From a virus, in IMG/VR virus record IMGVR_UViG_3300034198_023063, positions 16,758 through 80,757 of that record: a stretch of 64,000 bases of DNA. One strand, written 5' to 3'. Below are positions 49,368-54,722 of this stretch, piece after piece. The translations under genes and the position numbers were made by a program. Below the pieces are notes generated by a model. That model was not told the DNA's origin. It saw nothing but the letters and a program-made list of their open reading frames with translations, and ran no database searches. How positions within the stretch are numbered: position 1 is the first letter of the stretch; each line of letters opens with the position of its first letter.

Positions 49368-51338
49368 TTAGCGAATAGGGCAAGCGCCAGAAGAGCATTC
49401 AGCCATATCAAGCATTTCACTGCTGTTTATAGATAAGGATGAGATAGGCTTAACTTTAGAAGAAGCTGACAGATAAGTTTCTTCATCAATTTCTTGATAG
49501 GGAGCTTGTTTAAACCCATGATTTTTAAATAATAAAAAGCTAACGCTCTTAATATTATGCTCGTAGTTATTTTTTAGCCAGATTTTTAAGGATTCAAGTT
49601 CTTCTGGTTTATAATACGCTGTTACAGAAACGGCGTTATCAGACCAGTCTGTCTGTAGTTTCTTAACCATGTCAAGCTGCTTCAGTACGTCCATATCCTT
49701 GGCAAGTATGGAGCCTTCAGGAGTTTTACATGGGAAATAGACTACTACAGTATCCCTATTTTCTGTGCCATCAAAATTAACCAAAAACTCAACATGATAA
49801 CCCATGTCCTTGCAGATTTGGACTAGATTATCAGAACTAGACATGCGCACGGTCCTCATGTAATACTGACTGAAGGCCGGGTGAACTCCGGGGGTTGCTC
49901 CGCCAAGAAGACTTAGCGTCCCAGAAGGCTTGACAGTCGTGAGCTTAATGCTCTCAGGCCATCCGCGATGCTTGCTCCAAGCTTTATCGAAAGAGCGTAA
50001 AGAAATATAACAGTCATCAAGCCAATCAAGCTTGTGTAAAGACTGACAAACGCCAGTAATACCAAGGCCGAGACGCATATTTTTATGGACAATTTTGTTA
50101 GTTTCTTCATGGATGAAAGGCAAGGAAGCTATTGCTTTTTGAGTTTTATAAAGAAGTGTGGCGCAATCAATTAGTTCTTCTTTAGATTCGATATTGTTTA
50201 AATATAGTTCGCACAGGTTACAACATTCGTAATTTGAAAGACTTATCTCAGCGCATGGGTTAGTCATTTCGCAATTATCAAAATCTGTAGGATACATTGA
50301 ATTGTTGGAGATGAGCCCATCTTTAATTCTTCCAAATTTTTGAGACAATGGAAGATTAAAAAACCCATAAGGCTCTCCATTAGCATATCCGCTATCTTGA
50401 TTTATTTCATATCCGTTTTTCCAAACCTCTTCAAGCACATGACTATAGCTATCGGCGTATATCGTGTTGTTGCTCATAGCTCTCCAATTGGGAACGTTTC
50501 CAGTTCCCCAGTTTTTAGCGCGAAGATATAAGATGTCGTCTGGATCGCCTAGAGCAATCTCAGCGCTTCTACGAACATTGCCAGCAACAACAATGCTGCC
50601 GATGATATTGCAAATATCCAAAACATCAATTGAACGAAGTTTTTTTCCTTCTCTGGATTGAAATATCTTTGTGATTTTATCGATTCCATCAATAAGGATT
50701 TGTGGACCGCTAGCTTTTCCCCCAAAGCCCTTGATCGGCTCACCATACCCACGAATAAGGATCGTAGAGTAAGAGAACGATTTGCCAGACACATAGAACG
50801 CATCAAGAACATTCGAAAGTAAGTTAACCCACCCTTCGCGCTTGTCTGGAACGATATAATCAGCATCTTTAGTGCCTTCATGTATAACAGTTACACCTTT
50901 CTTTATTTTGGGGAGTTCATGAACATCTTCTCTGCGAATGCTATAGCCAACTCCGCCTCCAAGCATCAAGTTTTCAAAAAGGAATAAAAATGCTTTTGGC
51001 TCTCTCATGGCAACTGCCCAGCAATTTAAAAGAGAATTAGCCCCAAACCTATCAACAGTAGAGGTGCCTAGTTGCCATAGCATTCTTCCAGCAAAATTGC
51101 ATTTAAGATTAAAAACATAATCATAAATTCTCTCAGCTTCGTCTTTGGTATATCCTGCGCCGATTTTTTGCGCACCATTAACGCAGCGCTCTACCGTTTC
51201 AAACCATTCCTCTGTGGAGCCATCGTCCTTGTTTCTAGCGTAGGTTCTTTTGTATACAATATAACCTAATCCGTTAAAACCCCAGTTCGGTTGTCTGTTT
51301 TTATATTTATTTAAGAAGTCTTTTGAAATGATGCTCAT
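49368..51338 (-). CDS. nrdJ: class II (adenosylcobalamin-dependent) ribonucleotide reductase
   Basis: RTYAR, GNVRRSAEI, TNPCAEI, TTVKPSGT, C-terminal CSSGACPIR; no R2 subunit nearby. Confidence 0.92.
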   Translation of the reverse strand: MSIISKDFLNKYKNRQPNWGFNGLGYIVYKRTYARNKDDGSTEEWFETVERCVNGAQKIGAGYTKDEAERIYDYVFNLKCNFAGRMLWQLGTSTVDRFGANSLLNCWAVAMREPKAFLFLFENLMLGGGVGYSIRREDVHELPKIKKGVTVIHEGTKDADYIVPDKREGWVNLLSNVLDAFYVSGKSFSYSTILIRGYGEPIKGFGGKASGPQILIDGIDKITKIFQSREGKKLRSIDVLDICNIIGSIVVAGNVRRSAEIALGDPDDILYLRAKNWGTGNVPNWRAMSNNTIYADSYSHVLEEVWKNGYEINQDSGYANGEPYGFFNLPLSQKFGRIKDGLISNNSMYPTDFDNCEMTNPCAEISLSNYECCNLCELYLNNIESKEELIDCATLLYKTQKAIASLPFIHEETNKIVHKNMRLGLGITGVCQSLHKLDWLDDCYISLRSFDKAWSKHRGWPESIKLTTVKPSGTLSLLGGATPGVHPAFSQYYMRTVRMSSSDNLVQICKDMGYHVEFLVNFDGTENRDTVVVYFPCKTPEGSILAKDMDVLKQLDMVKKLQTDWSDNAVSVTAYYKPEELESLKIWLKNNYEHNIKSVSFLLFKNHGFKQAPYQEIDEETYLSASSKVKPISSLSINSSEMLDMAECSSGACPIR

Positions 51339-52835: not shown

Positions 52836-52865
52836 AAAAAAACCTACCTATTGTTATAGGTAGGT
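52836..52865 (-). terminator. rho-independent terminator
   Basis: 10-bp stem ACCTACCTAT/ATAGGTAGGT followed by a U-tract on the - strand. Confidence 0.75.
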
Positions 52866-53206: not shown

Positions 53207-53235
53207 AATATGGGTCAAAGACTTACAAAAGTCAA
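53207..53235 (-). promoter_or_regulatory. leaderless promoter TTGACT-N17-CATATT
   Basis: ATG 53199 follows the -10 box after 7 nt. Confidence 0.7.
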
Positions 53236-53843
53236 ACAAAATCGACAAAATCTTTGCTCGTAACTTTATTTTTCAAGAAAATTCTTGTCTTTTCGTGAAG
53301 ATTGATTGCTGTTTGAGTGCTAACCCCAAGTTTTTTGGCGATAGAATTCCAAGTAGCCAGCTTCTCCTCTCCTGAGAAATACCTAAGCTCATACACCTTT
53401 TTTATCCTTTCATCTTTGAGAGAAGACAGCAGAGAATTTAAATACTCAAATGTCTCATTGTTTTTATCAAAAGATAATACAATATCCTTGTTATTAAAGA
53501 AATCTATTTTATTATCCTCAGAAACTATATATTTCTTGTTTGAGTTAATATAATTCAAAAAATGATACTTGACGCAGTTGCAAAACCAAGTTGAAAACTT
53601 CGTTTTCTGCTTCGCATCGAAAGATTTTACTGCTTTATAAAGAATAAAGTCCTTCTCAGCTTTAATATCACTTATATTCATTCCAGCCCTCATCAAGGCT
53701 GAAGAATATTTCTGAACTATCGAGTAGTAAAAGTTATCGTATCCTTTTGATAGAGATACGAAACTATCGTTACAGTTAAGATCTTTAATTTTCTTTATTA
53801 ATCTTAACTCATCCTTGTTAATATTGTTTTTTACTTTAGCCAT
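53232..53843 (-). CDS. phage sigma70-family RNA polymerase sigma factor
   Basis: Region 2 'LYKAVKSFD...KFSTWF'; region 4 HTH 'VYELRYF...TWNSIAKKLGVSTQTAINLH'; AAAGGA SD upstream. Confidence 0.85.
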   Translation of the reverse strand: MAKVKNNINKDELRLIKKIKDLNCNDSFVSLSKGYDNFYYSIVQKYSSALMRAGMNISDIKAEKDFILYKAVKSFDAKQKTKFSTWFCNCVKYHFLNYINSNKKYIVSEDNKIDFFNNKDIVLSFDKNNETFEYLNSLLSSLKDERIKKVYELRYFSGEEKLATWNSIAKKLGVSTQTAINLHEKTRIFLKNKVTSKDFVDFV

Positions 53844-54279
53844 AGTGTTTTCCTTTTAGACATTGGAAAACAGCCATCGCCTTTATAACTTTTCCCTGAG
53901 TTGGCTTTTAAGAAATAGCAGGTCAACTGAAATTGTTAGATTTCAGTTTATTTAACCCAATCCTACCCGCTTCAGTCATCGCATCCCCGGCTTTAGTGAG
54001 TCCGTGTAGCTCGCGACTAAGATTGGCTATTTTCTGCTAACTGTTTACGGTTGACTTTTTTTTCGACACAGCCATCGCCTTTTCCCTTGAGAGGATTTAA
54101 GTTTCTAGCAGTTTTTCACAGGGGCCTTTAGGACGCCGCTTCTCCCGAACTAACGCTGGGATTTCTCCCAACCGCCTGTGGTCTTTTTACGGGCTTGTTG
54201 TCTCTTACGAGTTTTAAATGGGTTTCCCCAAGTGAGCATGGTTTTGCTCTAGCTACCACCAACACCGCACAGTAAGTTA
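53844..54279 (-). ncRNA. putative large structured ncRNA / 5' leader of the sigma factor gene
   Basis: Has its own promoter with no start codon after it; GC-richer than flanks; multiple helices and GNRA tetraloops; duplicated 15-nt motif. Confidence 0.65.
53870..54082. repeat. exact 15-nt direct repeat ACAGCCATCGCCTTT (53870-53884 and 54068-54082)
   Basis: Read directly; both copies have additional shared flanking blocks. Confidence 0.9.
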
Positions 54280-54285
54280 AAAAGA

Positions 54286-54313
54286 ACAATGATCCGTTTC
54301 CCTTGAAAGTCAA
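54286..54313 (-). promoter_or_regulatory. promoter TTGACT-N16-CATTGT driving the non-coding leader
   Basis: Same class as the other promoters; predicted +1 near 54279. Confidence 0.6.
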
Positions 54314-54314
54314 G

Positions 54315-54722
54315 TTACTTCTGCAAATCTTTTGGCGAAACTTTAGATGCAATAAATATTAAATTTTTAATATCTTTTTCCGTTATATTTTTCGGATCGC
54401 TCTTTTCGGCTTCGTTTTGGAGAACTTCGCAGACGTTATTTATTACACTCGAAATTCCAGCAGCAAGAAGATAGTTGAGTTCGATTTGCTGAGAAAATGC
54501 CTCTAGCGACTTAAATAAAATCCAGTAATCAGATCCTCCAACTGAACAGCTTCTGAGCAGACCAGAAGTTTCCATATCCTTCAACGCACATCTTAAAGCG
54601 GCTTCGTCTTCCTCTTCGTTTTCTGTAACCATTACGATTTCTTTAAAATGGGTTTTTAAATTTAAAACAGTTTTTTTGTTGAAAAACTCATTGATTAACT
54701 GATAAGCATCTAAAATAGTCAT
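54315..54722 (-). CDS. hypothetical protein (possible winged-helix N-terminus)
   Basis: 135-aa ORF preceded by TTGATT-N16-AATACT, 6 nt before the ATG. Confidence 0.7.
   Translation of the reverse strand: MTILDAYQLINEFFNKKTVLNLKTHFKEIVMVTENEEEDEAALRCALKDMETSGLLRSCSVGGSDYWILFKSLEAFSQQIELNYLLAAGISSVINNVCEVLQNEAEKSDPKNITEKDIKNLIFIASKVSPKDLQK

Follow-up and report, generated by a model that had tools for sequence, protein, structure and literature searches.

A predicted start-site hairpin at the end of a long structured leader RNA upstream of a phage sigma factor gene

Phage-encoded sigma factors determine when middle and late genes are transcribed, and to our knowledge the control of their own synthesis is poorly known outside a few model phages. 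In Escherichia coli, the rpoS leader is long and structured and carries a self-inhibitory stem over the ribosome-binding site, which is opened by DsrA, RprA and ArcZ together with Hfq. Here we describe a sigma factor gene of an uncultured virus (IMG/VR record IMGVR_UViG_3300034198_023063) that resembles rpoS, as a functional analogy only, in having a long structured 5' leader (~435 nucleotides (nt) from the predicted transcript start to the ATG) and a hairpin over both the Shine-Dalgarno (SD) sequence and the AUG. The DNA analyzed, hereafter the window, is a 64-kb piece of this 80.7-kb viral record, whose completeness is estimated at ~53%. The features lie on the minus strand, and all hairpin, leader and sigma coordinates are given on the window numbering.

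The sigma gene start site and the hairpin over it

The gene behind the leader (53232-53843, minus strand) encodes a sigma-70-family, extracytoplasmic function (ECF)-like sigma factor of 203 amino acids (aa), as indicated by matches to Pfam Sigma70_r2, to PHROG sigma factor families and to TIGR02937 (46.8 bits, cutoff 42.9). A homologue search recovered 190 relatives at E <=1e-5 in metagenomes, many of them from records of lake or other aquatic samples, and the nearest (P0002-P0017) were 73-87% identical to the window's protein; the GenBank phage collection held no match for either the DNA or the sigma protein. The start codon is the ATG at 53843-53841, and an AAGGA core ends 7 nt upstream of it. 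The original prediction had remarked that a clear SD is rare in this DNA, and the count bears this out, with AGGA, GGAG or GAGG at positions -16 to -5 in only 6 of the 56 open reading frames (ORFs) of at least 90 aa. Most clades of relatives likewise have AAGG(A) at a similar distance ahead of the sigma gene, and AAGGA probably functions as an SD in this SD-poor genome.

Direct reading of the minus strand confirmed the positions first proposed for both arms of the hairpin, for the ATG and for a GGAAAA word further upstream. The anti-SD arm UGUUUUCC (53865-53872) and the SD arm GGAAAACA (53846-53853), which contains the AAGGA core, form eight perfect Watson-Crick pairs, six of them A-U; CC pairs with GG, and the U-run at 53870-53867 pairs with the A-run at 53851-53848, around an A-rich loop of 11 nt, AAUGUCUAAAA (53854-53864). 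This 8-bp stem over the SD, as originally predicted, is present and is the core of the local minimum-energy fold, computed on an 81-nt stretch (-18.4 kcal/mol, z = -2.3, with 3 of 200 shuffles equally stable). The fold is longer than had been noticed: a ninth pair, G53874-C53845, forms across a bulged C, and beyond two 1-nt bulges in all the helix continues through AUGG/CUAU and GGC/GCU, covering the AUG as well. It is the start-codon segment CUAUGGCU (53838-53845) that can pair with GGCGAUGG (53881-53874) and lengthen the hairpin in this way, and the predicted energy of the extended form is -16.9 kcal/mol, compared to -7.1 kcal/mol for the core. Folding was repeated in a 114-nt context and in the full 474-nt leader, where each of the eight core pairs had a probability of at least 0.989. 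Opening the region from -15 to +3 of the sigma gene would cost 10.7 kcal/mol, the third highest value among the 56 ORFs (median 3.8 kcal/mol).

The masking hairpin does not have the properties of an intrinsic terminator or attenuator, its stem being A/U-rich and followed by CUAUGGCU, and a terminator scan of the minus strand returned no such site here. An ORF of 13 codons (53836-53877, minus strand) starts at an AUG within GGCGAUGGCU and ends in a UAA that overlaps sigma codons 2-3, and translational coupling through it was considered and rejected; we judged the ORF incidental because its counterparts in L015, L010 and L004 stop after 4-6 codons and that in L043 is in frame with sigma.

It is conservation in relatives that raises the hairpin above chance. 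Leader loci were collected by nhmmer from uncultured phage contigs (~70 loci, 41 unique, many of the contigs from lake metagenomes), and those closest to the window form clade A, with nine unique sequences in two subclades, A1 (the window, L002, L004, L010, L013 and L015) and A2 (L043, L049 and L046). Their sigma proteins are 58-80% identical to that of the window. The masking hairpin is the minimum-energy structure in all nine, and in each the anti-SD, UGUUU(U)CC, abuts the 3' strand of the preceding stem-loop, module 2, with no linker. The loops differ in both sequence and length (8-11 nt), while the 5' arm stays conserved. The window and L046 have UUUU opposite AAAA, and the nearest relatives of each have UUU opposite AAA; since the two belong to separate subclades, this represents two independent matched changes. 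L046 also has UG in place of CA, with pairing retained via two wobbles. The pair beyond the bulged C, G53874-C53845 in the window, is G-C in A1 and A-U in A2, a covariation, and the A2 version, with G changed to A at the equivalent of 53874, disrupts a pair of module 2. The other pairs of the AUG extension occur in A1 only.

Clade C has an unrelated anti-SD, CAUAAUCUU, located 5 nt past module 2 and complementary to that clade's own AAGGAUUAUG, indicating that masking beside module 2 recurs with a different sequence; in four of the seven clade C sequences, the unpaired probability of the AUG is just 0.01-0.05. From these sequence comparisons, start-site masking beside module 2 appears to be a recurrent, clade-specific add-on.

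Several observations weigh against a masking role, or limit how far it can be extended. An anti-SD is missing from clade B and several smaller clades, ~20 unique sequences in all, and the predicted folds leave the SD of these sequences mostly unpaired (0.7-0.87); the hairpin that follows module 2 in clade B, CUCUGUGG..ACAGAG, stays clear of the SD. Masking therefore does not qualify as the conserved core function of the leader. Within clade A the stem is nearly invariant, so that its support comes from matched indels and one covarying pair, not from broad covariation, in nine sequences, and single defects are tolerated in two of these (a bulge in L004 and a mismatch in L049). The masking fold is unusual but not unique, its z-score being modest by itself, and all folds and energies are nearest-neighbour predictions. 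In addition, the scarcity of SD words makes the weight of SD pairing in initiation uncertain.

The leader RNA and its two modules

The conserved structured leader occupies 53873-54276 (minus strand) and consists of a first domain closed by helices P1 and P2, a second domain, and two homologous stem-loop modules. It fills most of a 471-nt gap between a 135-aa gene and the sigma gene, in which the G+C content is 0.45-0.48, compared to ~0.32 in the flanking windows. The leader is present at every locus where the sigma protein is at least 58% identical and enough upstream DNA is available. A 33-sequence alignment yielded an RNAalifold consensus of 72 pairs, 66 of which were re-tested against 500 shuffles. 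Across these 66 pairs, 96.9% of cells were paired (84.0% in shuffles), 40 pairs had changed on both sides (28 in shuffles), and 282 cells had changed on both sides (78 in shuffles); none of the 500 shuffles reached the observed values. When the structure was slid by 1-3 columns, only 36-45% of cells could pair. Many of the conserved pairs are G.U, which would be A.C mismatches on the opposite strand, indicating that the RNA is read in the sigma sense. On this comparative evidence, the leader is a real structured RNA on the sigma strand.

No Rfam 15 family, and no known aptamer class, matched the leader of the window or those of seven divergent relatives at gathering thresholds, and none recurred at permissive ones (E 5-10 or better). 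In the distant relatives L105, L107, L111 and L083, whose sigma proteins are ~40% identical, the RNA precedes a gene ahead of sigma; in L105 this intervening gene is a 208-aa ORF resembling deoxynucleoside monophosphate kinases. Pattern scans confirmed no match in a bacterial genome, and the loci L130-L132, L134-L137, L155 and L161-L163, which such scans returned, are chance matches that nhmmer does not detect. A pairing of AAAUAGC with GCUAUUU was considered as the closing helix of domain 2 and not adopted, as 74% of cells paired and only a 5-bp core was invariant, compared to 91% of cells for the module-2 stem. The leader of L025 combines a 5' half of the L033 type with a 3' half of the L063 type, which indicates either recombination between lineages or a chimeric assembly. 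A GUGUAAU word stands ~30-40 nt upstream of the sigma ATG in L054, L017, L064, L032, L040 and L034, and is absent from the leader of the window.

The leader is probably transcribed from its own promoter of the sigma-70 type. A -35-like TTGACT (54308-54313, minus strand), invariant in all aligned relatives, directly follows the upstream 135-aa gene, whose stop codon is at 54317-54315, and 16 nt past this hexamer is a weak -10-like CATTGT (54286-54291, minus strand), which would place the transcript start near 54279. Every clade has an nAnnnT hexamer 16-17 nt past the TTGACT, with a spacer of variable sequence, and the distance from TTGACT to the ATG is constrained to 455-489 nt among relatives. 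In clade A the spacer that separates the two promoter elements contains an SD-like word, AAGGAAA(A)C(A/G)G (54296-54301 in the window, minus strand), complementary to the anti-SD arm; in the window, L043 and L046 as many as 8-9 pairs could form. Only read-through from the upstream gene would bring this word into a transcript. A third GGAAAC copy (~54301-54296) was set aside because it falls within the promoter spacer and is probably not transcribed.

Module 1 (54071-54111, minus strand) is a three-tier hairpin of GCUA/UGGC, an internal loop, CUU/AAG, and an apical UCC/GGA with a UCUCAAG loop. Module 2 (53873-53921, minus strand) has a basal stem formed by GCUAUUUCUU (53919-53910) and AGGCGAUGGC (53882-53873), with a mismatch at U53913/C53879, and contains the GGAAAA at 53895-53890 as the 3' half of its apical part; the identical word is found in module 1. 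Across the family, the tiers are a basal GCUA/UGGY in module 1 or a 10-bp GCUAUUKCUU/AGGCGAUGGY in module 2, then CUU/AAG, and an apical CC/GG with a (U/A)CUCAA loop. The module stems are paired in 88-100% of cells in the main family, the module-2 basal stem in 90.9% of cells over 32 distinct sequences, with a first pair that is G-C, G.U or A-U. Variation in the stems of the main family is one-sided, with no two-sided covariation; it is L105 and L083, with changes on both strands and pairing intact, that provide two-sided support. Isolated module segments fold alike in the window and, with different sequence, in L105 (556-603 and 730-802) and L083 (666-712 and 846-897).

An exact 12-mer, GGCGATGGCTGT, occurs twice in the leader, at 53881-53870 and 54079-54068, and no further module copies were found elsewhere in the 80.7-kb record. 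The same two-copy pattern matched by chance at 8196-8492 of L008, an unrelated viral contig, in a gene for a 98-aa protein made up almost entirely of Gly-Ser-Gly-Asp-Gly-Cys-type repeats. The 3' strands of the two modules are near-identical within each genome and differ between lineages, with at least seven variants that each occur in both copies, among them GGCGAUGGCUGU, GGCAAAUGGUGGA, GGUGAUGGUGG, GGAUAAGCAGU and GCUGGGAGUCA. The G/A position of CUGCUA likewise changes jointly in both copies. This concerted evolution suggests a shared partner, strand competition or gene conversion.

The original prediction had coupled the start-site hairpin to upstream RNA domains, and in a physical sense this holds: the 5' arm is continuous with module 2, without a linker, and its UGU is shared with the 12-mer. 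One strand, GGCGAUGGC (53881-53873), is used by two helices, the module-2 basal stem according to the comparison and the AUG extension according to the energy model for the window. Forcing the module-2 stem in the full leader costs 9.1 kcal/mol, and the 8-bp core mask remains formed. The G-to-A change of A2 at the equivalent of 53874 may favor the mask over the module-2 stem, on evidence that is thin, the rest of the AUG extension being confined to A1.

Possible roles of the hairpin

We favor, with somewhat better than even confidence, the explanation that the hairpin is a lineage-specific translational mask, built on module 2 of a new leader RNA, that damps or gates sigma synthesis. The sigma mRNA of this phage sublineage would carry the ~435-nt structured leader from its own sigma-70-type promoter, and the last 30 nt of that leader would fold into an A/U-rich hairpin whose 3' arm is the ribosome-binding site and whose 5' arm begins at the exact nucleotide where module 2 ends. 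Such a hairpin would be expected to affect sigma translation, hiding the start site and keeping translation down. In the window, it could extend over the AUG by borrowing GGCGAUGG from module 2, giving a structural choice between the module-2 basal stem, with the core mask only (-7 kcal/mol), and the extended hairpin (-17 kcal/mol). This choice, not one between the SD and GGAAAA, is the one best supported by comparison. It is conceivable that the mask is opened by a factor acting on the two modules, by a trans-acting RNA, or by ribosome standby on the A-rich loop.

A broader proposal is that the leader represents a new class of phage riboregulator, in which the modules sense a host or phage factor or a metabolite and gate sigma through clade-specific anti-SD arms (UGUUUUCC in the window's clade, CAUAAUCUU in clade C), and would thereby act as a developmental timer. 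We regard this as a tentative possibility.

Alternatively, the hairpin could be non-regulatory: a structural element that finishes the leader, for instance by serving protection or processing, or merely a tolerated local fold, with a 3' arm conserved only as the ribosome-binding site. The different hairpin that follows module 2 in each clade, including the one in clade B that misses the SD, would be consistent with this, as would the stem defects in two of the nine clade A sequences and a z-score of just -2.3. However, the 5' arm is non-coding and yet conserved beside a drifting loop, and the two matched U/A indels, the compensatory pair between A1 and A2, and the independent anti-SD of clade C point to selection on start-site pairing; we consider a non-regulatory hairpin unlikely.

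The original prediction went further than masking. It described an expression platform resembling that of a riboswitch, in which UUUUCC is bound to the SD in the off state and to the GGAAAA at 53895-53890 in the on state, as set by folding of, or binding to, an upstream module or aptamer. Both pairings exist in the sequence, GGAAAA being complementary to UUUUCC and lying, as had been said, within the second copy of the duplicated motif, and 5-6 such pairs are possible in every clade A sequence. GGAAAA is also transcribed ahead of the SD and could pair first; once the SD is constrained to stay open, GGAAAA is the best remaining partner of the anti-SD in the predicted fold, with AGUUAU/AUGGCU added to the helix, and the exclusion of the module-2 stem by this pairing would follow the logic of thiM-type platforms. 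The two halves of the proposal fared differently. The SD-masking half is retained, given its occurrence in all nine clade A sequences, the matched indels and the one covariation. GGAAAA, however, does not vary in any clade or in either copy of the module, not even in the ~25 sequences that lack a UUUCC anti-SD, so the switch does not explain its conservation. Conservation of both pairings in homologs had been named as a check: the mask is conserved in clade A, but no covariation links GGAAAA to the anti-SD, and its A-run (4-5 A) and the U-run of the anti-SD (3 or 4 U) do not change length together.

Suboptimal folding, which had been put forward as a check, also went against the GGAAAA pairing. 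Forcing it in the 114-nt context gave -10.9 kcal/mol, compared to -21.1 kcal/mol for the masked state (a cost of 10.2), and in the full 474-nt leader -116.1 compared to -127.2 kcal/mol (a cost of 11.1), corresponding to a probability of at most 1e-6. In isolation, the alternative hairpin is at -5.4 kcal/mol; the core mask reaches -7.1 and the extended mask -16.9 kcal/mol. If the 10-bp module-2 stem is in place, the GGAAAA pairing would be a pseudoknot with a 2-nt linker spanning the stem, and we infer that the two cannot coexist; the alternative consequently needs module 2 to be unfolded, and the switch would need a factor or a kinetic trap worth ~10 kcal/mol. Together with the lack of a known aptamer among the Rfam matches, this leaves the GGAAAA switch a rather unlikely account.

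Another idea is that the repeated (C)A(A/G)GGAAA words, in the loop regions of modules 1 and 2 and at the SD, are sites of one RNA-binding protein, CsrA-like or phage-encoded, which would bridge module and SD to repress translation, with the hairpin being secondary. The words may resemble CsrA sites, and most clades have three copies of CAAGGA, one per module and one at the SD, in the form CAAGGAU or CAAGGAA; concerted evolution of the modules within genomes is also what would be expected if one partner reads both. On the other hand, the GGA of the modules is in a stem and not in a loop, and no candidate protein was identified, the 135-aa protein encoded upstream offering weak winged-helix leads, so we consider such an operator improbable. 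Least probable of all is an RNA thermometer, in which an A/U-rich mask would melt with temperature and link sigma production to that of the water: the U-run does pair beside the SD, the core is modest at -7.1 kcal/mol and many relatives come from lakes, but the extended form reaches -16.9 kcal/mol, the four U pair with the A-run and not with AGGA as the fourU type requires, and a thermometer has no need for a 435-nt conserved leader.

Neighboring genes, significance and comparison with known systems

The unit of leader, sigma gene and a 100-aa gene is closed by an intrinsic terminator (52836-52865, minus strand) with a 10-bp G+C-rich stem and U7, whose 101-nt fold has an energy of -30.5 kcal/mol (z = -5.7). 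Its U-tract runs directly into the ATG (52835) of a glycosyltransferase gene, and no start region in the window takes more energy to open than that of this gene, at 16.4 kcal/mol. Sub-threshold matches to the Rfam family manA-II (25-30 bits, gathering score 100) were obtained in L057 (2411-2493), L024 (2419-2494) and L054 (2397-2457), ~300-400 nt downstream of sigma and roughly at the position of the terminator and intergenic site of the window. These matches are probably just the terminator hairpin.

The 135-aa gene upstream of the leader (54315-54722, minus strand) belongs to no family in Pfam, PHROGs or NCBIfam, and language-model and structure searches returned weak winged-helix look-alikes (scores <0.9, TM <0.5). 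In L035, too, an ORF of 135 aa occupies this place and runs up to the leader, and the coding sequence immediately ahead of the leader can be aligned among the relatives. A class II ribonucleotide reductase is encoded at 49368-51338 (minus strand), with the Maribacter phage Panino as its best match among cultured phages (49.5% identity). This match is a weak hint of a host of the Flavobacteriia type, which fits the SD-poor genome; promoters of TTGACT-N16/17 form do not fit it.

Widespread uncultured phages, largely from lake metagenomes, place a large, strongly covarying and previously undescribed RNA before a sigma gene, and a start-site mask appears to have been attached independently to the 3' end of this leader in at least two lineages. 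Should the mask turn out to be sensitive to how the leader is folded or bound, it would constitute a new RNA-level checkpoint in phage development, along with a new class of large structured RNA; otherwise, it would be an ordinary translational damper. The hairpin and the leader are the solid part of this picture, and the GGAAAA switch is its unsupported part.

Among known systems, the closest functional analogue appears to be the E. coli rpoS leader, as an analogy without homology. In both, a sigma gene stands behind a structured leader of several hundred nt, an upstream segment of which pairs with the ribosome-binding site and, in the phage case putatively, keeps translation low. The two have no relationship in sequence or in Rfam, the system described here is phage-encoded, and the inhibitory arm of the phage leader, at a distance of just 11 nt from the SD, directly adjoins a conserved stem-loop module. 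Translational riboswitch platforms, such as that of the thiM thiamine pyrophosphate (TPP) riboswitch, are similar in that a conserved structured domain is followed at once by an SD-sequestering helix, the two having one strand in common. However, the phage leader matches no known aptamer in Rfam, its candidate anti-anti-SD does not covary and is disfavored by ~10 kcal/mol, and the platform is found in only one sublineage of the RNA family. FourU and ROSE thermometers likewise use a short A/U-rich hairpin with a U-run pairing at the ribosome-binding site, but the U-run of the phage pairs with an A-run 3' of the GG, not with AGGA, and the phage hairpin can extend to a stable 15-bp form and is attached to a 435-nt conserved RNA. 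The operators of the MS2 replicase and of T4 RegA and gene 32 offer a further parallel, conceptual only and without sequence resemblance, in which a small hairpin, potentially kept closed by a phage protein, contains the start site of a phage mRNA.

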